Assembly: GCA_964016885.1 (NCBI GenBank) | Contig: OZ024741.1 | Coordinates: 203,174,001-203,238,000, forward strand | DNA length: 64,000 nt | Direction of reading: 5' to 3' | From: Eledone cirrhosa | Lineage: Eukaryota | Part shown: positions 1,723 to 63,200 of the stretch, piece after piece | Layout: each line of letters opens with the position of its first letter | How positions within the stretch are numbered: the stretch's first letter is position 1 | Made by a program: the position numbers and the translations under genes | The notes under the pieces: generated by a model | Seen by the model: the letters and a program-made list of their open reading frames with translations, nothing else | Database searches by the model: none | Told to the model about the DNA's origin: nothing

Positions 1723-4700
1723 TCAGACCAGACTCGCCACTTTCACCCACCTTTCAATAAACTTACTAGAAGACAACACTTGCCTCTCCACTCTGATTTT
1801 CTTCTTCAAGTGAAACTTGAAAAAGTTAATCAAGGATTGGCTGGAGAGGAAAAAGCCCGTCTTCAACCCTTTCAATCTTGTCCACCACACAATCTCTTTC
1901 GCCATGGTCACCGGGCAGATGAAAACTGGCTGCCCTTCCTCCTCTTTAAAGGAGGATGGCGGGGGTATCTGCACAATGGACTCAGTCGATAACCGGCTCC
2001 GTCGTACACGCGTCAGCAGCTGTTCGACATAGCTCCACAAGTCAGCAATTCCTCGGGCACTGAACGAGTGCGTTCAAGATGGTTTCGTCGCCCTGCACGC
2101 ATCTCGGACAGGCTCGGCTGACAGCAGCTCCGTGCCTGTAGAGCTTATCCCGAACCGGCAACGCTCTCCGGTAGCACTGCCAGGCCAGGGATTTCTGGAA
2201 GTTGTCCATAGGCCTCGGTCTGAAAGTTCTCTTGAATAGAGCGAACAGCTGATCGTCTTCGACGCCCAGGGTTGCCCCGAGAACGTTGTCGCTCTTTACC
2301 TCCACTAGCCCTCTATAGAACGCCGAGGTGGATGTTCCACCGTTACTAGTGCCCAGCCGGTAGAGGGCGGTGAGCGCTTGGAGACATTCCAGCTTCCAAG
2401 CGCTATCCCTCGGTCTTTTCCTGATCCAGGACAGCAGCTCCGTCAAGGAGACGAGCTGGGGAAAAGCGCGTCTGGCAAACGGCGACAACACATGTTCACC
2501 GTCAAGGAAGCACCAGACATGTCGCAGCCTCAGCGCATGTTTGCACATCATCAGCCACAGCATGCCTAGTTCTCCACGCAACGGGTGCTGACCATGGGAG
2601 CACGTCCCTTCCACAAAAAGCGGAAGAGAAGGCGCACCATTTTGGTCAGAGTTGGGCGGGGGCAAGGTACGACGGTCAGATGACGGACGCTATGTACGCA
2701 TTCACCACCTCCACCCGACCTTTTAGAGACAGCCTCCTCTCGGCCCATTTCTGGATGAAAGAGGCCACCCTGCTTGTCACCTCGCTCCAGTCTTTCTTCA
2801 TCTGGAGGTCCGGACCGAACCAGACCCCGAGTAATTTAACCGGTCCTTCCGTCCAACGCCTCACGATGCTGTCGGACGGCATGGACTTGCCTCTCCAGGT
2901 GCCAAGTTGCAAGCTCAGCGACTTTTCCTGGTTTATCTTTGCTCCTGTCACCGCTTCGTATTCCTTAAGAGCGGTGCCGAGCATCTGGACGTGTTTGGTG
3001 CTCGACACCACCACGGTGACGTCGTCGACGTAGGCTGACATGGATCTCCCGCATCCCAGTTCGCGTGGGACCCCTCATCGTCTCCAATTTGTGTATTAAC
3101 GACTCTAGGGCCAGTACGTACAAGAGGGACGAGAGGGGGAAACCCTGGCGGACCGAGCGCATGATGCTGAAAGGCTGCGACAGTTGACCATTCACCCTCA
3201 CGATCGAGCAGATGTCGCTGTGTATCGCAGCGATCCAGCCCCTAAAAACGGGCCGGAAGCCGGCCGCCTCGAGGACCGCAGCCAGGTACCGATGGTCGAC
3301 CCTATCAAATGCTTTAGATTGATCCAAATTGATCAGGGCCCCACCCGTGCCAGGTTCCTTAACCACCCTCTCTATGATGTATCGCATGAGATGGAGGTTG
3401 TCGTGTATGGATCTGTCCGGGATGGCATGTCTGCGCCTCTCCCACCAGATCACTGACGACAAGCGCCAATCTCTTTGCTAACACCTTGGCCAAAATCTTA
3501 AACTCTGCGTTTAGCAAAGTTATGGGCCTGAAGTTGTCTACAACTTCCCCCTTGTTCGGGTCTTTTCTCAGCAGCGCCACCGCTCCTCGGCTCACAAAAC
3601 TGGGAATGCTCCCGTTCTGCTGCCAGTTGCAGTAAACATCTGCCAAGAGGTCGCCGAACAAGTCTGGCATATTCGCATAAAGCTCGTAGGGCAGACCATC
3701 CAAACCTGCCGATTTACCCCTCGTGCAGTCAGACATCGCGCCCCGTATTTCACCGGCTGTTATCGGCTTTTACCAGCACTGCGCCGCGGTCGTGGATAGC
3801 CGCGGCAGTCCGTCGAGGTATGCACCGAAATCCATACTCTGAACCGGCCCGCCGCCGCTCCCGAACAATTGAGCAAAGTGCCTTTGAAAAGCTGCACACA
3901 TCTGCTCAGGTTCGAGCAACATGCGCCCGTTTTGATCAGGCAAAGACTGAATTGTTGCTTTGTTGCCACGTCACGCCTCCACCACCCGGGCCCATTGAAC
4001 GGCTTTCGTGCCCTCGTGTTTTAGAGCACGCGTTATAGCTCTTACAACGCAGCCTTCATGCTTTGCGTTGAAGAATTGGTCGAGTGTCAATCTCGCCACA
4101 AGCACGTCGGTTGCGATGCCTGTCCTAAACGCCTCTTCTAGCTTTCTAACTAACCCTCCCTCTACTCTATTTTCCTCTATCACTACTCCTTTGCTAAACC
4201 TTATCGATTCTACTCTAATAGCCCTTTTCAGGGTAAACCACCACCTGTTGTTGACGATCGCACTCGTCAACGCACGCTTAACTAATTCGCTAATCCGGTC
4301 TCTGTAAGCTTTGCGCGCTGGGAACGACGCGTTCAGCTTCCAGTAGCCGGGCCCTTGCCTATGGAGTCTATCTAAGCCAACTTCACAAATCACAAATTTG
4401 TGGTCCGTGTAGTCGACTACTTTAAATTGTGGACAACCTACACTAGCCTTATCTGTTTCCCTTCAGAATACTCTATCTAAATGTGATCTGGGTGACGCGA
4501 TGCGGTTTGCCCATGTCCACATTGGCACATTCCGATAAGCCAGTCTGTACCTGTCAGAGAGTTCAAAACGTGTGAGCAGGTTGTTGAGGCTTTTACACCC
4601 TCCTTCCCTCTCTACTAGCCCCACATAATCCCAGCGTGCATCTAAGATACCGTTCCATTCGCCCACTAACACTAAAGAGCGGGACGTTCCAAGAAAGGTC

Positions 4701-5080
4701 TCTAGACGTCTGAGGAAATCTGGCCGTCCTGCCTCTGTTGGGGCGTAGACGGCTACTAGCCTGAAAGCATTGCCTTCGCTGCCGGTCACGTCCAGCACCA
4801 CCGACTTACCTTCTGGGTCTAGGAAGATGGCCCTTATGGCGAGATCCAAGCCTCTCCGAATAAGCACTTCAACCCCTCCCCCCGATCCTGGACGGCTGGG
4901 AGATGCGTATACATCGTAGCCGAGGAAGATCGGTGCGAAGGCTTGTGCTTCGGAGATTCTGGTCTCGCTGATGGCCACCACATCTATGTTTAGTGACCTG
5001 AGATCGTTGAGCAGGTGACCCTGCTTCCAAGATGACCCCAGGCCACGTACATTTATACTGCCTATTCTAAGTACGGCCAT
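1723..5080 (-). pseudogene. LINE ORF2 (AP endonuclease + reverse transcriptase), frameshifted
   Basis: Motifs SINVRGL, ISET, VYAP, SHLDRV, GPGYWKLN, GLDGLPYE, NFRPITLLN, LDQSKAFDRVDH, VRQGFPLS, AYVDD and CPRC..ET....LVQC. Confidence 0.92.
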
Positions 5081-5116
5081 GTTGGATGAGAAAAGGGGTA
5101 AGTGAGAAAGGATCAC

Positions 5117-6947
5117 TTACCTTGATCGTGTGGTGAAGGGACAGTAGAACCGTCCTTTTGGCTGGTCATGAAGATGTCGGTGTATATCCTCTTGGTAACC
5201 GACCCTCTGATGTCTCCAACTGCGTTGGGGAATTTTTGTTTTAAAAGTTTGTAATGTTCTATTTTGATTTCAATGATATTTATGTTTGTCGGGATAGTTC
5301 TTGGTGTTGGTGGGATGTAGTAGTTTTTTTCTGTGATGTCTGTGTGCTGCTTTATATGTTGTAAGAGTCCTTTATTTGCCATGTTTATGGCTGTGTACAT
5401 TTTGGGGACAGGGGTGATTTTGTTGCTGTTTTCTTGTTGCTGTTGAGTGTGTGTGTTTTGTTGTGTTTGCGATGTTGGTGTTTTTGGTAATGCTGGTGGT
5501 GGTGTGGTTGTTGTTGGTGGTGATGTTTGTGGTGGTGATGGTGATGGTGGTGGTGTTGCTGCAAGTCTCCTTGCAGCCTTTACCCCTCTTTGTCTGCCTT
5601 CGCTTTTGGAGGATGAAGCTTAGGGATTTTTCCTTTTTTGTTTGTTTATGGCAGACCATTTGCCACTTCCCTCCCGCCTCGTACTCCATGTCAGATTCCA
5701 TGACGTCTGGGAGGGGTATGAGCTCCACTGCTGTTGGTGGTGGTAGTGGAGCCCTCTCTGGCGATTTTGCCGCCGGTGTTGCTACTGCGACTGATGGTGT
5801 TGCTGCCACTGCTGCCGCTGCTTTAGTTTTCCGTGGCCTTGGTATGGGTGCCACGGACGTTGCCATCCTACTCACCACGGAAGGGTCTTCTGCCTCTGTT
5901 GCCTGCCCTGCTCTTGGTAGCAGCGGATTAGGCGTCGGAAGGAGGGGGGGGGGCTCTTCTTAGCTGTCTTCTGCGGGCAGAAGGCCTTGAGGTGACCCTT
6001 CTGTCCACAGAGATAGCACTTTGGGCGCCTTCCTTCCACGCTTATAGGGAATAGGAGCCCTTCTCCGAGGTCAATGATGTCTGGGATGGCTTCGATTCAC
6101 TGCTGGTCAGTCTGTATTAGCATTTGCATTCCTATTCCTGACCAGTTCTCTCTTCCCATTCTCTGTATTTGCAGTATGATGGTCTTCTCCTCGATTCCAG
6201 CCAGTACAGACGCGGCCAGCCAAGGTATGGGCACGTCGAGCGGGACCTGGGTCACTTTGACCCTCACAATTTTCTGCCCGCAGTAGAAGGGCACCAAGAC
6301 TATCTCCTCACTATTTAGGGTTTCCAAAGAGTGCGACTTCGGCTCTTGGTGAGTGTCGAAAAGTACGTCTACTTTTTGCCTCAGGTGATGTGGGTTTTGC
6401 GCACCCAGACGCACCCCAAGGCCTTTTGGATTTGAGCCTCCATGGCTCTCCCCACTCGATGTGATATTTTGCTTACGGTACGGTAAGTTACCGTGCGCAG
6501 CTGCTGGTCTTTGAAGAAATCGGATGGAGGTGTCAGGGAAACTCTGTTGTCATTTCTCGACACCATGGCTCTTGCGACTGCCATCTACTCCACCGTGACT
6601 AGCACTGTCTCCATATTTCGGGCCACACCTGCGAAAGAAGTGGCCCCTTTCCCAGCGGCACCATTATTGCTGCCGCTACTGCTGCTACTGGTCTTGTTGT
6701 TGGTGCTGTTACTGTTGCTACTGCTACAAACGGTGTTGTTGGTGTTGTTGCTGGTATCACTATTGTAGTTGGTTGTGTTTTTGGTGCCACCGTTGTTGTT
6801 GTTTTCGGTGCAATTTGTATTGTTGCTGTTCGTGTTGTTGTGTATTTTCTTGTTCGTGGTGTTAATATCGTTGTTGCATTTGTTGTCATTTTTTTCTGTT
6901 GTCTGTATCTTGGTTGACGCTGTTATTGTTGTAGTTGGTGTGGTCAT
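5117..6947 (-). pseudogene. LINE ORF1 (gag-like), frameshifted
   Basis: Fragments 6585-6947, 6381-6584, 6097-6414 and 5372-5878. Zinc knuckle CYLCGQKGHLKAFC at about 5977-6018. Low-complexity N/T-rich ends. Confidence 0.75.
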
Positions 6948-8826: not shown

Positions 8827-9466
8827 GACAGTAAGGGTATTAAAGGACCTGTGGGATATTTTTCAGTGGAAGATTATATTATCCAAAATGGTCTTTAATT
8901 TTATAAGACGTTAGTATATAATCTGAATTAGTTTTGGAAAGTGTTTTTTTGCAAGTCACCGGTTTGTTCGTACTTTAGAAAATTTTATTTGAATTCTTAC
9001 ACATTTTATATTAGTGGAAAATGTTTACATTTTTTCACGACGAAAGCTTCTTATTATAAGTCTGTAGTTTCACATTTACCGTCAAATATACGCTATGTTC
9101 TAGCATAAATATATATCATTTTCTTAATTATGTTGCCAAATGTCAGGCAAATTAAATGAACCATTTCAGCTATATTGTACACCCTGCATAACATAAAATA
9201 CCTTGCTATAGTAAATTTACACAGTAGACAGAATCTTAGTTATTTTCTGATGAGGAGACAAAAATCGCTGAAATGCTACATAAACATAATTAATCTCATG
9301 TTTTTTTTCTTTGCACAGAGGAATAGTGAAAGCAGTTTCCAATCCATTCATTCCACAGCTAAGGTTTCTAATTAAAAAACGGTAAAAATATCTACATTAA
9401 ATTTATCTTAAGATCTTTAAATAAACATTGTGTTCTAGCATGAATATCTATTTACATAAGTTTCTA

Positions 9467-16890: not shown

Positions 16891-17329
16891 GGAAGCCCCA
16901 TTCCCTTCCTTTTCCTTTTTTTTTTTATATGCAGCTTATATGTAAAACGAGTAAAAATGCGCTGCCAGATACATATAAGAAGTAAGTGTTTAATGAATAT
17001 TGACTCTTTAGAATTCAAAGGTTACGGACCTACCAGCTTTTTACGTTTGTATATCTGTAATGTATTTCCTGTTCAAGAATAAATGTTATATGCATATATA
17101 ATAGTTTATCGTTTCTGTTTTGCATTTGAAAGTAGAGTACCAACCCTGAAATATTATGTTGAAATATACTGGGTAAAAAACATTACTTTGTTTTGTTTAG
17201 GTTTGTCACCTTTTGCCCTTTATATATTTCTACCCACTCTACCGTCTTACTGACATCTTTACCAATGAATTATTATATACCTCACAATGCTTCATATTAA
17301 CTATACTACTTTATTATATAATATGTATG

Positions 17330-19684
17330 TTCTTCTGGTTTTGTAATTTCACAAATTTTTTTTTTTCCAATAGAAAGAGAGTCGGTTTCTAACATAGACA
17401 CAAGACTCTCTCATTGGAATTTACACGTCAACTAGGTAGATTATGTATGCATGCATATGTAGATATGGATGTTATTGTATGTGTGGATGTGTATGTTTTC
17501 AGTTGTATGTGTGCATGTGTGTATGCTTTGTATCTGTACATGTGTATATGCAGTTATTAGATGCAAAATATTTGGAATGTTTTACATATTTTTACTGTTC
17601 CATTAATGGATTGTACTTGTAATTTCCTAACTAGTTGTGTTCTTTCTGTTCCCGTTAAGCCTAGCTTCTCAAGATTTGTATTGAGGCAGTTACTAACATA
17701 CCCCAGTGCCCCAATAATCACAGGCATAAATCTGAAGGTGTAATCAGCGTGGAGTATCTGCAGATTTCTCATCAGTTCTGCATAAATATTTTCTTTTTCG
17801 CTAATGTTTGATATTATATTGGCATCTGCTGGGCAGCTAATTTCCACTACTGTGCATGTTTTCTTCTCCCTGTCCCATATCATAATATCTGGTCTGTTAT
17901 GCCTGCATTTTATTGGGGTTTTTACTGGAACATTCCACCAGTGCTCTTTCATATTATGTACATGGATGTCTTCCACATTGCTGTAGATTTTAATGTGTTT
18001 ATTATCGGGGCTATCTTTTTTACGAACTGCATTGTACAGTATTTTGGCCACTACATCATGCCTCATAGGTTGATAGTACCGCGATGACATTTTGGACAGC
18101 TGCTGATGACATGGGTGATATCCTCGATGCTAGTTCTGCAGAGTCTGCACTTGTTATCACATCTAGGTGTTTTGCCTGCATCCCAATCTCTTTTGTGAAT
18201 CAGGTAGTTCGTGTTAATCTCCTGTTCTTGGATTGCAAAAGCATATCCTTCAAAGTGGGAGCCAATATAGCGGTTGTTGGTCCAAGATAGACTACTTTCC
18301 TTATCTATATTACTCTCACTCTGGAGCTTCCTGGCAACATATCCATGCATGATTTTTTGCTGATAAGTATGCAGTTTTTCATCCATGGATTCACTGCGAT
18401 ACTGCTGAGCGACTTCCCTGAGTGTGAGTTTTTGATTATCACACAGGGAATATCTCTGGAAGAGTTCCTTCCCAACTCTCATGATCTTATCTGTTTCATG
18501 CAGATAGACTTGCTCGAGAAACGGGCTCCTACGCTTCGAGGTTCGTAGATGTTGTCGGAGAGATATGATGCGACATTCAAATGTTGTCTGGACTGATGTT
18601 AGGCTTCTACCTCCCTGCTTACGTTTCAAGTAAAGGCGGTCTATGTCACTGTTGATGTGGAAGTTTCCGGTGTTGTTTAATATTTTTCGAGTTACAACAG
18701 CAACTGCTCGGATTTCGTCTATCGTCCAATTGAGTATTCCAAACGTTGGTGTTAGGACAGGCACAGCAAACACATTGTGAGCCACTGTTTTGTTTTGCGC
18801 AGAGAGTTCCGATGACCAGATCTTTCTTAATCGGGTATAGTATTCCCTGGTTACGCGTTCCTTATTACATATACCATTATAGGATATGTTCTCATCTATC
18901 CCCAGGTATGTGTTGCAGTCCTTATCAGATATCGGTGAAACAGTTAGGCCATTGATGACAATGTTGCTAGATTGGGTTGTTGTTTCCCCTCGCTTTACAG
19001 TCATATATGAGCATTTATCTTGGCCAAACTCCATTCCTATTTCCTTTGAGAACGTTGTAACCAGATCAAGATTTTTCTTCATCCCATCCATGTTCTTGGC
19101 ATAGAGTTTCAGATCGTCCACAAAGAAATTATGGGTTAGGTTCGTATTTCGGTCCTCCTGTGAGCCAATGATGTATCCCTCATATTTCTTGAGCAGAAAG
19201 GACAAGGGCTTTAATGATAAGATGAATAATATCACAGAGCGACTGTCCCCCTTAAATATACCCCTGCGATATTTTATTTTATCAGTGAAAATAGAGTCCC
19301 CCCTCTCTGTCTTTAACCTTAGGATAGGATAGTAGCCCAACAAGAAGACAGCCTCTCTCTGGCTCTGACAATAATGTCTGGGACTTTAGCAAGTTAGAGG
19401 GCCTCTATCATCCAAGAGTGGGGAACAGAATCGAAAGCTTTCCTGTAGTCCAGCCAGACTGTAGCCATATACCTCCTAAGTTGTCGCACCTCCGACATCG
19501 CAGTTTTGTTGATTAGGAGTTGTTCAGCACATCCTCAAACTCCTTTCTTTCCAGCTGCTTGTTCATCTGTGATGATGTTATTATTTTCACAGTGATCTTG
19601 GAGGAATAGGTTCAGGCAGGCTGTATACATCTTATACATCAGGTTCTGGCATGCAATGGGTCGGTAGTTTTTTGCCAAGTGGGT
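17330..19684 (-). mobile_element. 5'-truncated R4/Dong-like RLE non-LTR retrotransposon (RT, CCHC, PD-(D/E)xK endonuclease)
   Basis: Motifs NYRPIACQN, RGIFKGD, FFVDDLK, CRLC...HVISSC, RHD and RPDIMIWD..VEISCP...EKENIY. ORFs 18063-19343 and 17557-18090 are joined by a frameshift. Confidence 0.9.
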
Positions 19685-20039
19685 GTATGTATGTATGCAT
19701 GTATGTATGTATGTATGTATGTATTATGTATGCATGTATATGTGTGTGTGTATGTATGTGTGTGTGTGTATGTCTGTGTGTGTGTGTATGTTTTTATATA
19801 TACACGCATACACAGATACATCAAATACATATATAGTGTATCATATATATATTATATATTATACACGTTTATTATATAATTGATATAAAGGTGGTAGATA
19901 ACGTAAGGTCGTTAGCCGTATTTGTTTCAGTTTTTTACTTTCTAAGTTCAAAATCCCGCCGAATTCATCTTTAACTTTAATCCTTCTGGGGTCCATAAAA
20001 TAAAGTACCAGTAAAAGTACTGCTAGCCTCTTGTTTAAA

Positions 20040-20236
20040 TTAGAAATCATATTACTTCGATTACCTTCTGTTGCTAGTCTGAGATTTGCGAGTAGTCGGT
20101 GATCACGCAGTTACGTAATATAAAATTATATATATATATATATATATATAATTTTATATTACGTAACTGCGTGATCACCGACTACTCGCAAATCTCAGAC
20201 TAGCAACAGAAGGTAATCGAAGTAATATGATTTCTA
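20040..20236. repeat. Perfect palindrome centred on (TA)n
   Basis: About 85 bp of unique arm is exactly reverse-complemented around a TA run. Confidence 0.9.
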
Positions 20237-20455
20237 GTTTATATATATATATACATGTATCCTTAATTGCTCGCATGCTCACGTAAACACGCACATGAAT
20301 ATTGGTGAATACACAGCCGCATTATCACCCCAACAATTACACCCAAATACACACATTCGCCCGCTCACAAAAAAAAAAAATAGTGCCGATGCCTATATAT
20401 ATATATACCTTCTCGGGCCGCATACAATAACAAAAATATATCGTTTGTTGCATCA

Positions 20456-20597: not shown

Positions 20598-20682
<85 letters not shown>

Positions 20683-20734
20683 TATATATATATATATATA
20701 TATACAGTGTATTGCAAAATACATTATATATACA

Positions 20735-20768
<34 letters not shown>

Positions 20769-20863
20769 TGTATATATAATGTATTTTGCAATACACTGTA
20801 TGCTTAATTAAAAGCATTTTGAAGACCATACGCTACTTAAATTTTCGGCACACAAGGGGAGAT

Positions 20864-20908
20864 AAGTTGACAGCGCTGTTTCGTACTATTTGGTACTTAT
20901 CAAAACTC
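20864..20908 (-). ncRNA. Type I hammerhead, U3:A8 core
   Basis: Reverse complement: gagtt TTGATAA gtac-caaata-gtac GAAAC agcgct GTC aactt. Confidence 0.7.
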
Positions 20909-21095
20909 ACTACTCTCCCCGTCCGCCGAAAATTATGTGTGTTGGATTCTTATAGAATTCTAGTAACAATCAGGAACCGATTTTACAGAGCGGTCGCCGG
21001 CCCAGCAAAAATTGAAAATTAGAATTGGTGCTCTGAAAGAGCGATATATATATATATGAATGTATATATAGTGTATTTTGCACGAGGAGAGTAGT

Positions 21096-21140
21096 GAATT
21101 TTGATAAGTACCAAATAGTACGAAACAGCGCTGTCAACTT
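21096..21140 (+). ncRNA. Type I hammerhead, U3:A8 core (inverted sister copy)
   Basis: gaatt TTGATAA gtac-caaata-gtac GAAAC agcgct GTC aactt. Confidence 0.65.
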
Positions 21141-22402
21141 ATCTCCCCCTGTCTGCCGAAAATTTAATGTCGCTACTTTAAAACAATAGCGTATGGTCTT
21201 CAAAATGCTTTTAATTAAGCATACAGTGTATTGCAAAATACACTATATATACATTCATATATACATTGCTATTTGAGAGCACCAATTCTAAGTTATATAT
21301 ATATATAACATTTTTTGCTTTGTGTTTTGTCTAAAACATCCCCCTAGACAATTCCCGAACTATTTCTGGTAACCCTAAAAAATAGGCGACGTTTCTATAT
21401 TAGGATGGAAACTAAAACGAAATAAGTTTAGTGTTGCAATTTAATTGAATAATTTCTTAATCCCATTAATGATGACTAATTACTGGTCGTAGACGCCTAC
21501 ATACATGACATAGGTGAATTAGCGGATAACGTACAAGACACTTGCCTAACTTGCAACTTATTAGAACCGAACCAGAAACTGCATGGTTGTGAAGCGAACA
21601 TCTTAACTACCACCCCATGACTGCCTTTATAACAATGTTATGACACTTTATTATATATAGAAATCATGTGTTTGTATTTAACAAACTTGTATTTAGTCAT
21701 TGCTGTGAGGATACTGTAGATCCTTCGTTGGATTCGCTGATTAGCATTCAGCCATTCGATCATTCAAAAACCGGACTTCTGAATAAACCTGTAAATAATT
21801 GAGCTTCCACAGACACGTGTGCCCTTAACCAAATTGCCAAGTAGAATCAGCATGATATAATATATGACAAAGTGAGACCTTGGAATTGCAGAAAATGTCC
21901 ATCTTTTCTAATGTAAATGGTTGTATATTCCATTGATACATAAAATACTTCTCAGCGCGATTCAATATGGCACAATGTGTGACAAGGCTGGCTCTTTGAA
22001 TTATAGGCCTAATACATCCGATGGGCTTTTACACAGTTTCAATATATCTCATGTCACTCACAAGGCTTGGGTAGACGTGAAGCTATGGTAAGTACACTAG
22101 CACAATATGCCAGGTTCTGGAATCGAACCCCCGATTTCATGTATGCGACGCAAACGTCTTAATCACTCAGCCTTGCTCACATCCTCTGCGAAAAGCTAAT
22201 CTGCGAATAAGGAATTTGCTAAGGTAACGGTGAGTGAGGAACCACTCGACTAGTTTAAGATTCACCAAAGATTGCTCAACCCCACTATCTGTATATAGTA
22301 AGTTTTCATTTCCCCAAAAGATCTAAGACAAATCGTGATATTAGTCACAGAATAAAAAAATGCACTCACATACACAGACACGCGCTTACATACATACGAA
22401 TA

Positions 22403-22678: not shown

Positions 22679-22743
22679 TATTTTATCTGATGAAAGCGTA
22701 CCAATGTTGTCTTGGTTGCCCTTGAAATATATATAATAAAATA
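22679..22743 (+). ncRNA. Type I hammerhead
   Basis: tattttat CTGATGA aag..accaa-loop-ttggt..ctt GAAA tatata TA ataaaata. Stem I is 8 bp and stem III is palindromic. An inverted copy of its own 5' flank lies upstream (22603-22633). Confidence 0.65.
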
Positions 22744-22814
22744 AATATGGTATTATAAATATAGTTTCCATTTATTTAATATCATTGTGTGTGTATATAT
22801 ATATATATATATAT

Positions 22815-23080
22815 GAAAAAAGTTTGTCCTTCATCAGTGATCTTCCAATCATCATAGGCATTTCATCGCTTTAAAGACCATATACCTCCGGTTGGTGCGA
22901 GCAACGGCTGAAAAAAATCGTTGGGACACCATTTGTTTGTTTACCCTCGCGTCCCCTTTATTTACGTGTCCCAACGACCTTTTTTAGCCGTTGCTCGCAC
23001 CAACCGGAGGTATATGGTCTTTAAAGCGATGAAATGCCTATAATGGTTGGAAGATCACTGATGAAGGACAAACTTTTTTC
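22815..23080. repeat. Fold-back inverted repeat, about 114-bp arms, next to (TA)n
   Basis: 22815-22929 is the reverse complement of 22966-23080 with few mismatches. Confidence 0.9.
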
Positions 23081-23136
23081 AAATGTAACCCATTTGCAAC
23101 CCCGCAGCGCCCTTATTATCATATATATATATATAC

Positions 23137-23175
<39 letters not shown>

Positions 23176-23746
23176 GCGGCGATGAATTAGTTTTGCGAGG
23201 TTTTTTATATGAAATCGTGTGTCGAAACAGATATTGTTATATTTGGGGAGGGTCATATTTGCGTAATATTGCCAGAATTAATAACAGAACACACTCACTG
23301 TTTGGTTGGTTTTCGCTTCTCGCTGTCTTTTATATGTATATATCTGCGATCTAACTTATTCGGTCCTCAATGTTGCCATTGACTGACCGGCGGTCAAAAA
23401 TAATACAGATACAATATAGACAAACACATATATATATAGTTTACATAAATCTTTCGTTGCACATCTGCAACATCGTCAGTGGTGTTATATTCATTGTTCC
23501 TCCTGTTGTGTTGTATGTCTACGCCATTTTTTTGTTCAGTCTGTCTATATATTTATTTATTTATTTGTTTGTTTATCTTATTTTATTTTGTCTTCTTTGC
23601 GCATGCGTTTGCGTGTGTGTATAGTGTTATGTGTGATGTGTGACTAGTGTGTATAGTGTTGTGTCTGCTGGGTGACTAGTGTGTGTTTATGTGCTTGTGT
23701 ATGTATTTATTTATCTTATTTTATTTAATTTAATTTACTTATTTAT

Positions 23747-24415
23747 TTATACTTCTCTTAGGTCAGTGTTGTTTGTTTGGGTGTTGTTGTTGTTCCACTC
23801 ATTCTTTCTGTTTAGCTTTGGTCTTCTAATTTCTATTTCACTGGCCTCTCTGATTTGCCTATCTGCTGGGTCATTCCTATGTTTAGATATTATTCTAATT
23901 TCTATGTTGTCTATGTTACCGTCATGATGTTGTCTAGCATGTTCGTATAGTACTGACCCGTTTTTTCGTCCTTTTAGTTCCCCCCAGTGTTGGTCTATCC
24001 TTTCACCTATGCTACGAGCTGTCTCACCTATGTATGTTGTTGTCGTGTTTCTGCAAGTACCCTCTGTACATCTTATGCTATAGACTACGTTTCTAGTTTT
24101 ACAGTTTATCCGGGGGTTCACCTTACATATGATACATTTCCTATTGGTACAGTGGGTTTTCTTAAAAGGGTAGGTTTTGCTGATCAGGGATTTTATGGTG
24201 GTTCCTGGCTTTTCTACCACCTTTATTTTTAAGTGGGTCTTTCTCAGGGCCTTTCTACACTGGTTAGCTAATTTCCCTCCAGGGGTGGCGTCCACAAACA
24301 TGACACTCTGATATCTCTGGTTGTCGTACCATGATGTGGCCTTCCCTATCTTATGTCTAGCCCTATCTAAGCTATTCCATGATTTGCTCCTGTATAGTGG
24401 GCAAATTCCTTTCAT
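23747..24415 (-). CDS. Inverted duplicate of the PLE GIY-YIG region
   Basis: 222 aa identical to the C-terminus of 24379-25557. Confidence 0.8.
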   Translation of the reverse strand: MKGICPLYRSKSWNSLDRARHKIGKATSWYDNQRYQSVMFVDATPGGKLANQCRKALRKTHLKIKVVEKPGTTIKSLISKTYPFKKTHCTNRKCIICKVNPRINCKTRNVVYSIRCTEGTCRNTTTTYIGETARSIGERIDQHWGELKGRKNGSVLYEHARQHHDGNIDNIEIRIISKHRNDPADRQIREASEIEIRRPKLNRKNEWNNNNTQTNNTDLREV

Positions 24416-25557
24416 GTCCAGTTATAAGAACACCCCCACTAGAGAGCACTAACAAGTTTGATTTAGAACGTAGCACGATGGAAAGCATCCAGCAGATAGC
24501 TAATTCCATACACCAGAGTATAACTGTAACTATAGACTTCCCTTCCAAACACCCTAACAATAGACTACCTGTATTAGACACAGAACTCTGGATTAACACT
24601 ATAGACGAGAGAGCCCAAATTCTCCACTCACACTATGCTAAACCCATGGCCTCCAAATACCTGATACTCAAAAACTCAGCAATGTCCAGTAGTGCTAAGT
24701 TTAACATTCTGATCGCAGATTTGGTACGAGTGATGAAGAATGTGTCCAGCATGTGCGACCCAACAGAAATGGAAGGACACATCCAACACTTCATCAACCG
24801 CATGCAGTTCTCTGGCTACAACCAAAGAGACAGAGTCAGAGTATACGAAGGAGCCATGGAAAAGTATAAGACCCTCATAGAACTGGACATGAAAGGAATT
24901 TGCCCACTATACAGGAGCAAATCATGGAATAGCTTAGATAGGGCTAGACATAAGATAGGGAAGGCCACATCATGGTACGACAACCAGAGATATCAGAGTG
25001 TCATGTTTGTGGACGCCACCCCTGGAGGGAAATTAGCTAACCAGTGTAGAAAGGCCCTGAGAAAGACCCACTTAAAAATAAAGGTGGTAGAAAAGCCAGG
25101 AACCACCATAAAATCCCTGATCAGCAAAACCTACCCTTTTAAGAAAACCCACTGTACCAATAGGAAATGTATCATATGTAAGGTGAACCCCCGGATAAAC
25201 TGTAAAACTAGAAACGTAGTCTATAGCATAAGATGTACAGAGGGTACTTGCAGAAACACGACAACAACATACATAGGTGAGACAGCTCGTAGCATAGGTG
25301 AAAGGATAGACCAACACTGGGGGGAACTAAAAGGACGAAAAAACGGGTCAGTACTATACGAACATGCTAGACAACATCATGACGGTAACATAGACAACAT
25401 AGAAATTAGAATAATATCTAAACATAGGAATGACCCAGCAGATAGGCAAATCAGAGAGGCCAGTGAAATAGAAATTAGAAGACCAAAGCTAAACAGAAAG
25501 AATGAGTGGAACAACAACAACACCCAAACAAACAACACTGACCTAAGAGAAGTATAA
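24379..25557 (+). CDS. PLE polyprotein C-terminal part: end of RT, thumb, Cys linker and GIY-YIG endonuclease (5'-truncated)
   Basis: LPVLD, HYAKPM, CTNRKCIIC, NVVYSIRC...YIGETARS..ERIDQH, EHARQHH and IREASEI...PKLN. The first 15 codons come from the inverted arm. Confidence 0.85.
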   Translation: MICSCIVGKFLSCPVIRTPPLESTNKFDLERSTMESIQQIANSIHQSITVTIDFPSKHPNNRLPVLDTELWINTIDERAQILHSHYAKPMASKYLILKNSAMSSSAKFNILIADLVRVMKNVSSMCDPTEMEGHIQHFINRMQFSGYNQRDRVRVYEGAMEKYKTLIELDMKGICPLYRSKSWNSLDRARHKIGKATSWYDNQRYQSVMFVDATPGGKLANQCRKALRKTHLKIKVVEKPGTTIKSLISKTYPFKKTHCTNRKCIICKVNPRINCKTRNVVYSIRCTEGTCRNTTTTYIGETARSIGERIDQHWGELKGRKNGSVLYEHARQHHDGNIDNIEIRIISKHRNDPADRQIREASEIEIRRPKLNRKNEWNNNNTQTNNTDLREV

Positions 25558-25820
25558 ATAAATAAGTAAATTAAATTAAATAAAATAAGATAAATAAATA
25601 CATACACAAGCACATAAACACACACTAGTCACCCAGCAGACACAACACTATACACACTAGTCACACATCACACATAACACTATACACACACGCAAACGCA
25701 TGCGCAAAGAAGACAAAATAAAATAAGATAAACAAACAAATAAATAAATAAATATATAGACAGACTGAACAAAAAAATGGCGTAGACATACAACACAACA
25801 GGAGGAACAATGAATATAAC

Positions 25821-25862
25821 ACCACTGACGATGTTGCAGATGTGCAACGAAAGATTTATGTA
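25821..25862 (+). ncRNA. PLE pLTR hammerhead motif (mirror copy at about 23442-23483, minus strand)
   Basis: acca CTGACGA t gttgca-gatg-tgcaac GAAA gatt TA tg. The core and stem II are good; stem I is weak. Confidence 0.5.
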
Positions 25863-26065
25863 AACTATATATATATGTGTTTGTCTATATTGTATCTGTA
25901 TTATTTTTGACCGCCGGTCAGTCAATGGCAACATTGAGGACCGAATAAGTTAGATCGCAGATATATACATATAAAAGACAGCGAGAAGCGAAAACCAACC
26001 AAACAGTGAGTGTGTTCTGTTATTAATTCTGGCAATATTACGCAAATATGACCCTCCCCAAATAT

Positions 26066-26124
<59 letters not shown>

Positions 26125-27985: not shown

Positions 27986-28017
<32 letters not shown>

Positions 28018-28023
28018 TGTATG

Positions 28024-28920
28024 TTCTTCTGGTTTTATAATTTCACAAAGTTTTACCAATAGAGAGAGAGAGTCGGTTTCTAACATAGACACAAGAATCT
28101 CTCATTGGAATTTACACAACATCAACTAGGTAGATATGTATGCATGTGTAGATATGGATGTTATTGTATGTGTGGATGTGGATGTTTTGAGTTGTATGTG
28201 TGCATGTGTATTTGCAGTTATTAGATGCAACATTTTTGGAATGTTTTACATATTTTTACTGTTTCATTAATGGATTGTACTTGTAATTTCCTAACTAGTT
28301 GTGTTCTTTCTGTTCCTGTGAAGCCTAGCTTCTCAAGATTTGATTTGAGGCAGTTACTAACATATCCCAGTGCCCCAATAATCACAGGCATAAATCTGAA
28401 GGTGTAATCAGGGTGGAGTATCTGCAGATTTCTCATCAGTTCTGCATAAATATTCTCCTTTTAACTAATCTTTGATATTATATTGGCATCTGCTGGGCAG
28501 CTAATTTCCACTACTGTCCATGTTTTCTTCTCCCTGTCCCATATCGCAATAACTGGTCTGTTATGCCTGCATTTTATTGGGGTTTTTACTGGAACATTCC
28601 ACCAGTACTCTTTCATATTATGTACATGTATGTCTTCCACATTGTTGTAGCTTTTAATGTGTTTATTATCGGGGCTATCTTTTTTACGAACTGCATTGTA
28701 CAGTGTTTTGGCCACTACATCATGCCTCATAGGTAGATAGTACCGCGATGACATCTTTGGACAGCTGCTGATGACATGGGTGATATCCTCGATGTTAGTT
28801 CTGCAGAGTCTGCATTTGCTATCACATCTAGGTGTTTTGCCTGCATCCCTATCTCTTTTGTGAATCAGGTAGTTCGTGCTAATCTCCTGTTCTTGGATTG
28901 CAAAAGCGTATCCTTCAAAG
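28024..28920 (-). mobile_element. 5'-truncated copy of the R4/Dong-like element
   Basis: High similarity to 17330-18255. (TATG)n on both sides. Confidence 0.88.
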
Positions 28921-28924
28921 TATG

Positions 28925-35773: not shown

Positions 35774-35821
35774 ATGTATGTATGTATGTATGCATATATG
35801 CATGCATGTATGTATGTATGT

Positions 35822-36560
35822 TTCTTCTGGTTTTATAATTTCACAAATTTTTGTCATTAGAGAGAGAGCCGATTTTTAACATAGTTACAAGACTCTCTCA
35901 TTGGAATTTACACAACATCAACTAGGTAGATATGTATGCGTGTCTGCATGCATGCATGCATGTGTGTGCAGGTATGGATGTTATTGTATGTGTGGATGTG
36001 GATGTTTTGAGTTGTATGTGTGCATGTGCATAAGCTTTGTATCTGTACATGTGTACAGGCAGTTATTAGATGCAGAATTTTTGGAACGTTTTACATATTT
36101 TTACTGTTCCATTAATGGATTGTACTTGTAATTTCCTAACTAGTCGTGGTCTTTTTGTTTCTGTGAAGCCCAGATTCTCAAGATTTGTACTGAGGCAGTT
36201 ACTAACATATCCCAGTGCCCCAATAATCGAAAGTATAAATCTGAAGGTATAGTCAGGGTGGAGTATCTGCAGAATTCTTATTAGTTCTGCAATAGATATT
36301 CTCCTTTTCGCTAATCTTTAATATTATATTGACATCTGCTGGACAGCTAACTTCTACTACTGTGCATGAATTCTTTTCCCTGCCCCATATCATAATATCT
36401 GGTCTGTTATGTTTGCATTTTATTGGGGTTTTGACTGGAACTTTTCACCAGTACTCTTTCATATTATGTATGTGTATGTCTTCCACATCGCTGTAACTTT
36501 TAATGTGGTTATTGTCGGGGCTATTTTTTCTACGGAGTGCATTGTACAGTGTTTTGGCCA
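35822..36560 (-). mobile_element. Third, more diverged 3' copy of the R4/Dong-like element
   Basis: Homologous to 17330-18050. TATG repeats on both sides. Confidence 0.85.
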
Positions 36561-37415
36561 GTATGTATGTGCGTATGTATGTATATGTATGTATATATGT
36601 ACATGCGTATGTCTTTGTATGCGCATGCGCGCGTGTGTGTGTGCGTGTGCACGTGTGTGTGTGTGTTGGTGGTGGTGGTGTGTGTGTGAGTGAGTGTGAC
36701 AGAAGCATCGAAAGAAGAATCTATCTCAATATTAGATTGATACATTATTTATCGACTCTGGTAGGACGAAAGGAAAAGTTGATAACTTGGGATTTGAACG
36801 CAGGGCAGAGAGAGTCTCTACAAGTACAACACATTCCATTCAACGTGCTGACCATTGTAATTTTTACGTTTACTTGCACCTTTACTTATTTAATATTTGG
36901 TCCTGATCCCTCTTCCTCCGTAAGACGACGAAAAGGAAGAGTCGTTAGAATGTCAGATAGAAAGCTTCGCTTTATTCCTTTTAGTTCTCTGCGCCCCGAG
37001 TTGAAATCCGGTGAACTTTGCCTTTTGTCATTCTGGGGTCGAAAAATAAAGTACTAATTCGGTACTGTGACCGATTCTCCCTCCCCACCTCTATCTTTGA
37101 TTTTTTCTCCTCTGGAAATCTGGAGTTGGATGGTCTCCACCATCTTTAAATGCCCAAGACACATCATATATCACTACAGGGCTCCGACGACTCCATAGAG
37201 AGTTAATGTCCTATGGCATGACATGGCCGATAATCTCCGTGTAGTTCTACAGTTTGGTGAGTACAGTACACATATCTGAAATGGCTGACACTATGACACT
37301 TGAAATAATATCACTTTACCAGCATACAATATACTGTAAATTATCTAAGATTAATGAAACGTTACGGTATGTAGAAAAATGTTACACATACAATATCAAA
37401 TACAGACACATATAT

Positions 37416-37830: not shown

Positions 37831-38260
37831 GTATACTGTACACACATTGTTTATGTTTTTGTACATATTTTATGTCTACCACGTGTTTTTTTTCTGTTTT
37901 TTTTTCACTTATATTTACTTTGTTTTAAACTTTCACGCTGTTCAATTGTTTGCTTCTTGATCTTGTTGCATCGACCCCCACACACACCTTCACATCCAAA
38001 TACCCACACGCCCACACACACACGTATATAAATTAATTACAGAAACTCTGAAAATTAAATATACATTTTAATATTGAAGGAGATTAATGCGATATATAAA
38101 ATAGAATGTACCAGTCATTATACAGTTACTATAATGTAATAGTACTTGTGTTTAAAACATTACTGGATCATGGCATGTAACACCTGCTCAGACGTGTTAC
38201 ATGTTATACTTGTAAAGTGTTACAACGACATGTTACACATGCTATAGCGTGTTTTAGATG

Positions 38261-39072
38261 AACCAGTGACGCCTGCTGTAATGTGTTACAGCGGAGCCTG
38301 TGCCGTCTGCTATAACGTGTTACAGTTGAGCCAGTGGCGTCTCCTGTATCGTGTTACAGTTGAGCCAGTGACGTCTTCTGTAACGTGTTACAGTTGTGCC
38401 GGTGATGTCTTCTGTAACGTGTTACAGTTGAGCCAGTGACGTATTCTGCAATCTGTTACAGTTGAACTAGTGACGTCTCCTGTAACGTGTTACAGTTGAG
38501 CCAGTGACGTCTTCTGCTACGTGTTACAGTTGAACCAGTGACGTCTTCTGTAACGTGTTACAGTTGAGCCTGTGACGTATTCTGTAACGTGTTACAGTTA
38601 AACAAGTGATGCCTGCTGTAATGTGTTACAGCGGAGCCAGTGACGTATTCTTTAACGTGTTACAGTTGAACAAGTGACGCCTGCTGTCATGTGTTACAGC
38701 AGAGCCAGTGCCACCTACTATACTGTGTTACAGTTGAGCCAGTGACGTCTTCTGTAACGTGTTACAGTTGAGCCAGTGACGTCTTCTGTAATGTGTTGCA
38801 GTTGAACCAGTGACACCTGTTCTAATGTGTTACAGCGAAGCCAGTGACGTCTTCTGTAACATGTTACAGTTGGGCTATTGACGTCTTCCGTTTCGTGTTA
38901 CAGTTGAGCCAGTGACGTATTCTGTAAAGTGTTACAGTGGGGCCAGTGACGCTTTCTATGAGTTACAGCGGAGCCAGTGATGCCTACTATACCGTGTTAC
39001 AGCTACATGTGGTACTAGCTATAACGTGTTGCAACATGTTACACTTGCTATAACGTGTTATAGTTGAACCAG
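38261..39072. repeat. 34-bp minisatellite (tgtaacgtgttacagttgagccagtgacgtcttc), over 20 units
   Basis: Period 34 read directly (for example gttga at 38461 and 38495). Confidence 0.92.
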
Positions 39073-42765: not shown

Positions 42766-43288
<523 letters not shown>

Positions 43289-49024: not shown

Positions 49025-49112
<88 letters not shown>

Positions 49113-49119
<7 letters not shown>

Positions 49120-49224
49120 ATACTTGGGGAGGGTCATATTTGTGTAATATTGCCAGAATTAATAACAGAACACACTCACTGTTTGGTTGGTTTTCGCTTT
49201 TCGCAAAACTAATTCATCGCCGTT
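49113..49224. mobile_element. Tiny PLE-end fragment with an internal inversion
   Basis: 49113-49198 matches 23232-23318. 49201-49222 is the reverse complement of 23177-23198. Confidence 0.75.
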
Positions 49225-49620: not shown

Positions 49621-49756
49621 ATAGGAACGAGTAGGGCCCGACGGCTTGAGCTCAGCCGTCGGGGTCCTACTCGTTCCTATCACCCACTCTACTACCCTAA
49701 GTATTGAGTACTTTGGTGAGTTATGGTCCATCTGGTTCCTTACCACATTTCCTTCG

Positions 49757-49758
<2 letters not shown>
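49621..49758 (+). mobile_element. Hairpin-headed short element; other copies at 51587-51865 and 56469-56658, diverged copy at about 45350-45500
   Basis: Shared 3' body ttcctat.acccactctactacc...ccacatttccttcgtta(TA)n, preceded by a palindrome of variable length. Confidence 0.8.
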
Positions 49759-51586: not shown

Positions 51587-51591
<5 letters not shown>

Positions 51592-51863
51592 AACCAGTAA
51601 GACCCCGACAGCTGAGCTCAAGCCGTTTCGACGGCTAATTCTGGACTAAATGAAAATTTATCCTGGTATTTAAATACGTATATGTATATATACATGCATT
51701 TAAATACCAGGATAAATTTTCATTTAGTCCAGAATTAGCCGTCGAAACGGCTTGAGCTCAGCTGTCGGGGTCTTACTGGTTCCTATTACCCACTCTACTA
51801 CCTCAAGTATCGAGTACTTTGGTGCGTTATGGTCCACCTGGTTCCTTACCACATTTCCTTCGT

Positions 51864-54591: not shown

Positions 54592-55147
54592 ATAATATAA
54601 GATCAAAAGATGGTTAAAAGCGTTCCTCGCACATATTATGAAACCCTTCAATATACAAACCTTAATTTAATATTATTCTTAATCCCTTTTTCTCTTCATG
54701 CATAAACCTCATTAACTTTTAATTTCAAATTCTTTTAAATTATCTATTATCTTCCAACGGCTTTTTAACTTCTCTCTGTGAGACAATATATATTTTTTTC
54801 ACAGTTGTAAAGGCTATCTCTCTCTCTCTATCACCCATCTCTCCTCCTCTCTCATCCTTCCTTCTTATATTCCTCCCCCACCATTCTTTACTCTCATCTC
54901 CTCCTCTTCCTTACCTTTTCCACCCCCACCCCCTCACTTTTTCCCAATCTCATACATCAATCCTAAATTATTTTTCATATATTGATTTAAAACTTCACTA
55001 TTCACAAGTGTTTTTTAAGCTTCATATCATGTATCCCTATTTTATCTGATGAAAACGCAGATATCATCCCATGATGATATTTGTTTTTGAAATGCGCATA
55101 ATAAAATACTTGGAACTCTTTTAACCATCTTTTGATCTTATATTATA
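54592..55147 (+). mobile_element. PLE-type 3' end with a short inverted terminal copy
   Basis: ataatataagatcaaaagatggttaaaag.gttcc at about 54592 is the reverse complement of 55112-55146. A pyrimidine-rich body is followed by an HHR. Confidence 0.65.
55038..55108 (+). ncRNA. Type I hammerhead, canonical core
   Basis: tattttat CTGATGA aaac gcagatatcatc-ccat-gatgatatttgt tttt GAAA tgcgca TA ataaaata. Confidence 0.8.
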
Positions 55148-55439: not shown

Positions 55440-55675
55440 ATATATTATATATATATATATAAATATAAGTATGTATACGTACATATATATATGTATGCAG
55501 ACGTACAGTAGTATGTATACATATATATATATACATGCACACATATATATATGTACGTATGGATTCACCGAACATTTATTATAATGCTCGGTGTGTTTGT
55601 AAACAAACATCCCGAATTAAGCCGTACAGTGTCTAGCAACCATCGTTGCTCATTTGTTCAACACTGACAAAGGAA

Positions 55676-55718
55676 CGCTGTACTAGTTTCAAGCTTATTA
55701 GCCATCGTCAGCACCGTA
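55676..55718 (-). ncRNA. Type I hammerhead (left arm)
   Basis: Reverse complement: acggtg CTGACGA t ggct-aata-agct t GAAAC ta GTA cagcgt. Confidence 0.6.
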
Positions 55719-56141
55719 TACCTTCCTGCCAGATGATTGAACGTCTGAAAGTATATACTTTCCTTATGCATATTAACGGCTGAGCAGCCTAATTTGCACA
55801 TAATTAATCGACCGGGCGCACCGAAAACAATAAACGGAAAAAATGAAACGAAATCTCATTTCTCACACTTAGTACGGCTGTTACTTAAATATAAGTATGT
55901 ATACGTACATACATATATGTATACAGACGTACAGTAGTATGTATATATATATACATACATGCACACATATATATGTACGTATGGATTCACCGAACATTTA
56001 TACTTTCCTTATGCATATTAACGGCTTTTCGGTGCGCCCGACCGATTAACTCACTCGATATGCAAATTAGGCTGCTCAGCCGTTAATACGCATAAGGAAA
56101 GTATATACTTTCAGACGTTCAATCATCTGGCAGGAAGGTAT

Positions 56142-56184
56142 ACGTTGCTGACGATAGCTAATAAGCTTGAAACTAGTATAGCGT
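56142..56184 (+). ncRNA. Type I hammerhead (right arm)
   Basis: acgttg CTGACGA t agct-aata-agct t GAAAC ta GTA tagcgt. Confidence 0.65.
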
Positions 56185-56468
56185 TTCTTTGTCAGTGTCC
56201 AACAAATGAGCAACGATGGTGCCTAGACACTGTACGGCTTAATTCAGGATGTTTGTTTACAAACACACCGAGCATTATAATAAATGTTCGGTGAAGCCAT
56301 ACGTACATATATATATGAGTGCATGTATGTATATATATATATACATACTACTGTACGTCTGTACACATATATGTATGTACGTATACATATTTATATTTAA
56401 GTAGCAGCCGTACTAAGAGTGAGAAATGAAATTTCGTTTCATTTTTTCCGTTTATATATATATAATAT

Positions 56469-56656
56469 ATAGGAACGAGCAGGACCCCGACGGCTGAGCT
56501 CAAGCCGTTTCGACGGCTAATTCTGGAATTAGCCGTCGAATTAGCCATCGAAACGGCTTGAGCTCAGCCGTCGTTCCTATTACCCACTCTACTACCCTAA
56601 GTATTGAGTACTTTGTTGCGTTATGGTCCATCTGGTTCCTTACCACATTTCCTTCG

Positions 56657-56658
<2 letters not shown>
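56469..56658 (+). mobile_element. Hairpin-headed short element, third copy
   Basis: Same termini and body as the copies at 49621 and 51587. Confidence 0.8.
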
Positions 56659-62724: not shown

Positions 62725-63200
62725 TATAAAGAAAAAAAGATGAAATCGAAAATGCAACTGGAGTCTTATTTAAAAATATATATATATATTTATTTGGTTC
62801 CTTTACCGGTTTCGCAGTTATTCTGCTTTTCAAAAGTAGAGTTGGGATGGAGGGTTTGTGGTTTTTCTCACATCTGCTGCTAACACAGAAGGGAGCGGTT
62901 AAGCGAGGAAAGGGCCAATCCCACTTTCTGAACATCGAATGCATTTATTCAAAACGAACAACTGGTCTACATCATTGGATGCAAACGAAGTCGCAGGTTT
63001 TATATCAGGAGTCTCGAGCTCCACAATAAAAAAAAAAAAAAAAAAATTGCCAGATGTGAGAAAAACCACAGACCCTCCATTTCAACTCTACTTTTGAAAA
63101 GTAGAAGAACTGCGAAACCGGTAAAGGAACCAAATAAATATATATATTTTTTAAAAAATAAGACTCCAGTTGCATTTTCGATCTCATCTTTTTCTTTATA
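62725..63200. mobile_element. Inverted-repeat HHR element (arms 62725-62876 / 63051-63200)
   Basis: Arms of about 150 bp are reverse complements, each carries an HHR motif, and (TA)n lies nearby on both sides. Confidence 0.75.
62799..62838 (-). ncRNA. Type I hammerhead, U3:A8 core (sister copy at 63089-63128, plus strand)
   Basis: Reverse complement: tactt TTGAAAA gcag-aataa-ctgc GAAA ccgg TA aagga. Confidence 0.55.

Follow-up and report, generated by a model that had tools for sequence, protein, structure and literature searches.

A non-coding 292-base repeat unit with a predicted hammerhead inside a TA microsatellite

Arrangement of the repeat unit

The DNA analyzed here, a 64-kb stretch referred to as the window, is microsatellite-rich, of animal type and full of retroelement fragments; repeats near the locus described below may point to an octopus. 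At 20702-21294 it carries a non-coding 292-base repeat unit with a predicted hammerhead, which lies inside a TA microsatellite. Self-comparison resolved this locus into one full copy and two inverted partial copies within (TA)n, termed arms A, B and C. The left (TA)n tract (20599-20701) is the likely insertion target, at which no target-site duplication is readable, and the right (TA)n flank spans 21293-21306. The preliminary description gave the extent as 20702 to 21291, with a partial inverted copy following the minus-strand arm; the start and the inverted copy, arm B, were correct, but arm B ends at about 21294 and arm C is a second inverted partial copy.

Arm A occupies 331 nt on the minus strand (20752-21082; non-coding, 37% GC) and consists of the 292-nt unit (20791-21082) and a 39-nt terminal repeat. 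When up to three mismatches were allowed, the 26-nt end block R, TGCAAAATACAYTATATATACATTCA, occurred four times in the 64-kb window (20713 plus, 20790 minus, 21082 minus and 21232 plus), always at the locus, and it had no match in 100 dinucleotide shuffles. In arm A, the 5′ copy of the block (21057-21082, minus strand) carries C at block position 12, in common with arm B, and the 3′ copy (20765-20790, minus strand) carries T, in common with arm C. The distance from 21082 to 20790 gives the period of 292. The block is followed by (TA)n at both ends, and the terminal redundancy including (TA)n amounts to 39 nt, 38 of which are identical. The earlier observation that the minus-strand arm starts and ends with the same block at this period is thus confirmed.

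Along the minus strand, the 5′ block is followed by internal (TA)n and the sequence that forms the 3′ tail of arm B (21016-21056), by a segment present only in arm A (20935-21015), and then by the hammerhead. As the segment is seen once, it may be connected to the tail by a junction unique to this copy. No further copies of the unit were found elsewhere in the 64-kb window, and the monomer length of 292 is known from one locus. The exact pattern of the 26-nt block did not occur in prokaryotic genome contigs, and no copy was found in phages and plasmids.

When two units are joined head to tail, the longest frame opening with ATG reaches 53 aa, and an 80-aa antisense stop-free frame, considered in order to catch mis-called ORFs of other copies, has no protein homologue. 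These results are in line with the previous statement that the arm has no credible ORF. Neither an RT nor a GIY-YIG ORF is present in 20702-21294. In length (292 nt), GC content (37%) and non-coding nature, the unit is within the limits of non-LTR retrozymes (150-450 bp, GC < 50%).

Arm B (21083-21294, plus strand) is a head-to-head inverted, 5′-truncated copy that begins inside stem I of the hammerhead and overlaps arm A by 1 nt at 21082. It runs from the hammerhead through block R (21232-21257) into 37 nt of the unit start and crosses the end-to-start junction independently of arm A. This 37-nt extension or tail (21258-21294, plus strand) is present only in arm B; it matches the unit start in arm A and is absent from the 3′ end of arm A. 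Arm B also contains 18 extra nt at about 21168-21186. The two arms differ by 8 substitutions and 22 gap columns in 216, and the tail is more diverged than the rest (4 of 28 aligned positions vs 4 of 166, p 0.016 in a post hoc test).

Arm C (20702-20751, plus strand) is an inverted copy of the last 50 nt of arm A, placed tail-to-tail across (TA)n, and together with the 3′ end of arm A it forms a perfect 100-nt palindrome (20702-20801). A 206-nt near-perfect palindrome centered on (TA)n, unrelated to the locus, lies at 20036-20241, and one of its arms ends in a further TA run. Since this unrelated sequence forms the same TA-centered palindrome, arm C is likely a DNA-level fold-back in the TA tract, later than the insertion.

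The predicted hammerhead and its folding

The predicted type I hammerhead of arm A (20840-20934, minus strand) has the core UUGAUAA starting at 20903 and a GUC cleavage triplet ending at 20869. Its stem II has 4 bp and a loop of 6 nt and is followed by GAAA, a palindromic stem III of 10 nt and the GUC; stem I is long and interrupted. Its loop 2 presumably resembles that of Sm-alpha, a resemblance on which a literature text search found nothing. The core of arm B (21101-21135, plus strand) is identical to that of arm A from the core to the GUC at 21135, but the 5′ strand of its stem I bears two pair-breaking changes and a truncation. The GUC at 21135 quoted in the preliminary description belongs to arm B, that of arm A being the one at 20869. 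The core carries U3-A8 instead of C3-G8, which is described in PMC3088659 as a natural core covariation that is active in vitro.

In a custom scan of both strands, the hammerheads of arm A (20903-20869, minus) and arm B (21101-21135, plus) ranked first and second among seven hits, while the average over 30 block shuffles was 0.2 hits, none of which reached a score of 13. A stricter scan missed arm B because of the stem I mismatch, and the relaxed scan that found it missed the hammerheads of a 426-nt family described below, which were found by eye. Rfam gave no match at gathering thresholds in the 64-kb window and no hammerhead family among 34 E-value matches for 20600-21400. Its microRNA matches were rejected, as they arise from the AT-rich palindrome and fall far below their own thresholds. 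The single hammerhead noted earlier in the minus-strand arm stands as a predicted motif on which Rfam is silent.

Stem I is long, and the 106-nt segment folds at z −5.8. The proximal stem I of 7 bp is followed by a bulge, and with a loop 2 of 6 nt the predicted geometry is compatible with a loop 1-loop 2 contact. The 5′ strand of stem I in arm A pairs at −39.1 with the 3′ strand of arm B vs −34.1 with its own 3′ strand. This cross-arm pairing and the two pair-breaking changes in arm B suggest that the arms likely decayed separately.

The circularized unit is predicted to fold better than shuffled sequences (z −4.8, 200 shuffles; z −3.5 without the hammerhead). In this fold the start of arm A adjoins a hairpin loop whose stem pairs 20791-20797 with 21070-21076, and 20935-21017 has no significant fold by itself (z −0.7). 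When the ensemble of the circle was predicted, pairing in the proximal stem I and in stem III of the active hammerhead had a probability near 0. Forcing the active fold cost 5.6 kcal/mol relative to the predicted minimum. Both values, from a model of single molecules that leaves out tertiary contacts, speak against activity. The palindromic stem III pairs with itself at −16.9, which makes dimer cleavage plausible; cleavage as a dimer is reviewed for hammerheads of Penelope-like elements (PLEs) in PMC6765202. Self-cleavage of the hammerhead is a prediction. The locus contains 1.1 units per strand and two hammerheads on opposite strands, without a head-to-tail pair; with one hammerhead per strand, no monomer would be released by double self-cleavage.

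The PLE insertion pattern and other elements in the window

PLE insertions are described as heavily 5′-truncated, and as showing partial tandems, an inverted 5′-truncated copy at the 5′ end, a tail of 30-40 bp that is often at one end only, and a bias for microsatellites (Craig et al., 2021, PMC8557442). The locus carries all four hallmarks: the partial tandem, or pseudo-LTR, is the 39-nt terminal repeat of arm A, the inverted 5′-truncated copy is arm B, which abuts arm A at 21082/21083, the one-end tail is the 37 nt on arm B, and (TA)n lies on both flanks.

A coding PLE is located at 23176-26073, 1.9 kb from the locus. It is young and 5′-truncated, and its inverted arms are 99.8% alike over 1199 nt; one arm is extended by 55 nt, and (TA)n lies on either side. 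The inversion, the one-arm extension and the flanks are PLE hallmarks. Its 398-aa stop-free frame has 76 homologues, and its look-alikes include clusters with GIY-YIG and RT. A cysteine-rich linker and GIY-YIG-like motifs were read by eye. The protein had no Pfam match, six of its 76 homologues gave nothing significant, and the two matches in a PDB sequence search were both non-significant. The relaxed scan found no hammerhead in 23176-26073, and no DNA similarity was detected between this element and the locus. As they share no DNA, the coding PLE exhibits the insertion pattern but is no demonstrated helper. Parts of its end are found again near 42879-42952 and 49112-49204.

An unrelated non-coding hammerhead element with a 426-nt period is present at 55462-56455, with a terminal repeat of about 116 nt, (TA)n flanks and hammerhead cores at 55711 (minus) and 56148 (plus). 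Its second arm, arranged head-to-head, deviates by no more than 3 nt from a whole unit and carries a tail of about 58 nt at its end, and a 28-nt extra piece is found at the inversion junction. All four PLE hallmarks are present in this element. Because its second arm is a whole unit, discrete unit lengths occur in this genome, and by analogy the 426-nt element supports a discrete unit length for the 292-nt element. It is arguably a cleaner test case than the 292-nt locus.

Several other sequences in the window were recorded. An inverted pair at 62725-63200 (91% over 152 nt, between (TA)n tracts) has an extension on one arm and a weaker hammerhead-like motif, also with U3-A8 (62833 minus, 63094 plus). 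Three short-stemmed motifs resembling type I hammerheads, with the core CUGAUGA, occur at 22687-22735, 55046-55100 and 9247-9282, the first two with a palindromic stem III and shortly upstream of (TA)n. An inverted repeat at 22808-23087, which is flanked by two (TA)n tracts and made up of 122-nt arms separated by 36 nt, contains CUGAUGA without a complete hammerhead. A palindromic repeat family adjoining (TA)n (49621-49757, 51587-51863 and 56471-56657) is 86-93% alike and varies in hairpin length. Broken LINE-type retrotransposons lie at 17322-19385 and 2042-5116, with an RT frame at 18063-19385, of which partial copies occur near 28016-28921 and 35813-36563, and an endonuclease frame at 4463-5116. 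Two retroelement proteins of the window had best matches at 48% and 55% identity, the matches being nearly all unnamed proteins. A minisatellite at 38248-39002 has a 34-nt period and about 22 copies, and ARAGORN called a possibly spurious tRNA-Thr at 5700-5783, within a GC-rich retroelement region.

Origin of the locus and comparison with known retrozymes

In the study by Frangieh et al., 2024 (PMC11167929), a PLE protein cleaved AT-rich DNA on both strands, extended both and began reverse transcription at two internal sites that define the tail. According to the same source, uncleaved RNA is the main PLE template in vitro and endogenous loci are tandem. On balance, we lean towards the explanation that the locus is a non-autonomous retrozyme-type unit copied into (TA)n by a PLE reverse transcriptase-endonuclease from head-to-tail RNA, either a circle or an uncleaved multimer. 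As both arms span the cleavage site, their templates would have been uncleaved or religated. The PLE enzyme may have nicked both strands in (TA)n. One end would have primed at the internal TA run of the unit, and extension over a whole unit and at least 26 nt more would have given arm A. Priming from the other end would have taken place 37 nt further on, on a second template unit that differed slightly, and synthesis would have ended within stem I to give arm B. The two cDNA ends would then have been joined head-to-head, and arm C would have been added later by fold-back in the TA tract, leaving the locus as a putative dead-end offspring copy.

The preliminary description proposed that reverse transcription ran past one full turn of a circular or multimeric RNA. 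In support, the order of arm B fits what a head-to-tail template predicts. However, terminal redundancy alone is no proof of a circle, because a partial tandem, an inverted copy and a tail are the ordinary PLE pattern and uncleaved RNA is the main PLE template. The 8 substitutions and 22 gap columns between arms A and B also make one single circle unlikely as the template of both. The C/T split at block position 12, considered as proof against a single circle, was set aside as ambiguous. Judging from the sequence, a circular RNA stage is possible for the 292-nt unit; we regard a circle as the template only tentatively, and a linear multimer as slightly less probable still.

It is doubtful that the template was instead a linear unit-length RNA with fixed ends, the 5′ end near 21015 and the 3′ end at the tail, and that the terminal repeat arose by a template jump at the 5′ end to the 3′ end of a second RNA, without circle or multimer. 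Such a jump would yield an identical sequence, and it would suit the end blocks of arm A, which differ at one site, where the 5′ one agrees with arm B and the 3′ one with arm C; the second arm of the 426-nt element, which starts within 3 nt of the tail end, is as compatible with a fixed 5′ end as with a full turn of a circle. But one difference in 26 nt also fits ageing, with arms A and B differing by about 4% and each having its own pair-breaking changes, and the tail of the studied PLE is set by internal starts on a longer RNA, its endogenous loci being tandem (PMC11167929).

We consider it similarly improbable that the arms are 3′-terminal pieces of a longer coding PLE. Arm A would then be a chance partial tandem, in which a very short copy upstream, made up of end block and tail, is fused to a copy truncated about 250 nt from the end, and the figure of 292 would be accidental. 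This explanation persists because the segment 20935-21015 was seen once. The tail of arm B ends where this segment begins, and by itself the segment does not fold significantly (z −0.7); PLE insertions are 5′-truncated and form partial tandems (PMC8557442), and the nearby coding PLE, of another family, has an inversion and a one-arm extension. On the other hand, stem I is long here, whereas PLE hammerheads are usually minimal (PMC6155905) and those of the canonical long form belong to short units in tandem (PMC7229834), and the unit holds no coding remnant. A search of the Naiad/Chlamys/Hydra supplement of PMC8557442, a text in which line breaks can hide matches, with five 10-11-nt motifs of the element gave one match, whose surroundings are GC-rich and unrelated.

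That all duplications and inversions result from DNA rearrangement or assembly error at an unstable (TA)n, from one ancestral hammerhead copy, is very improbable: such an origin is likely for arm C alone, a perfect fold-back centered on (TA)n with the same pattern at the unrelated 20036-20241, but the A/B junction lies outside (TA)n, the substitutions and gap columns between these arms are unlike an assembly duplicate, and the four-part layout recurs in the unrelated 426-nt family.

A further-reaching and correspondingly speculative form of the retrozyme explanation is that this locus and the 426-nt element are footprints of retrozymes reverse-transcribed from covalently closed circles by a PLE-type enzyme, with fixed internal starts and a stop at or past one full turn. 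If this were true, the copy ends would map the integration step directly, and retrozymes would be tied to PLE enzymes by an insertion signature, beyond phylogeny and co-occurrence. Both the enzyme that mobilizes animal retrozymes and the circle as its template are described as proposed, not demonstrated (PMC7229834; 10.64898/2026.07.22.740005). As a single decayed insertion, the locus is ordinary repeat content. Given a non-coding hammerhead unit with the PLE signature of tail, inversion and (TA)n, and a second unrelated example within 64 kb, a genome-wide map of copy ends could test the mobilizing enzyme and the template.

Among the papers listed for octopus hammerheads, cephalopod retrozymes and non-autonomous Penelope hammerheads, as far as these lie outside subscription journals, no report of the 292-nt family was found, and ribozymes are absent from the main text of the 2026 Octopus vulgaris repeat annotation (PMC13282606). 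Among known elements, endonuclease-bearing PLE insertions share with the locus a sense-strand type I hammerhead with palindromic stem III, but the locus has no RT/GIY-YIG ORF and its stem I is long compared with the minimal hammerhead usual in PLEs. Sm-alpha of Schistosoma mansoni, a non-autonomous repeat with a full type I hammerhead (PMC6155905), is alike by this description and has another core pair at positions 3 and 8.

Non-LTR retrozymes are described by Cervera and de la Pena, 2020 (PMC7229834) as tandem units of 150-450 bp, low in GC and non-coding, with a type I hammerhead and expression as circles, for which PLEs are the proposed helper. Li, Clavereau and Pollet, 2026 (bioRxiv 10.64898/2026.07.22.740005) link retrozymes to PLE pseudo-LTRs and count solo monomers as likely offspring; of the nine predicted Xenopus retrozyme dimers reported there, one was cleaved in vitro and eight were not. 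The unit differs from metazoan non-LTR retrozymes in its U3-A8 core and in its folding: its predicted minimum is not the active fold, but in most retrozyme circles of metazoans the ribozyme is predicted to stay free (PMC7229834). The locus also differs in having no head-to-tail hammerhead pair and thus falls outside the 'active retrozyme' class as described in 10.64898/2026.07.22.740005. The label retrozyme-like, given in the preliminary description, is accordingly apt for the 292-nt, 37% GC, non-coding unit with its type I hammerhead and long stem I, but not for the locus as regards tandem hammerheads, of which it has none. The likeness to metazoan non-LTR retrozymes extends to a unit of about 300 nt, low in GC and non-coding, one type I hammerhead per unit, indel length variants of about 20 nt, solo 'monomer' copies and coexistence with PLEs. 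The locus thus likely works like a retrozyme offspring copy and likely belongs to this family, and the element is likely a new example of a known animal retrozyme type.
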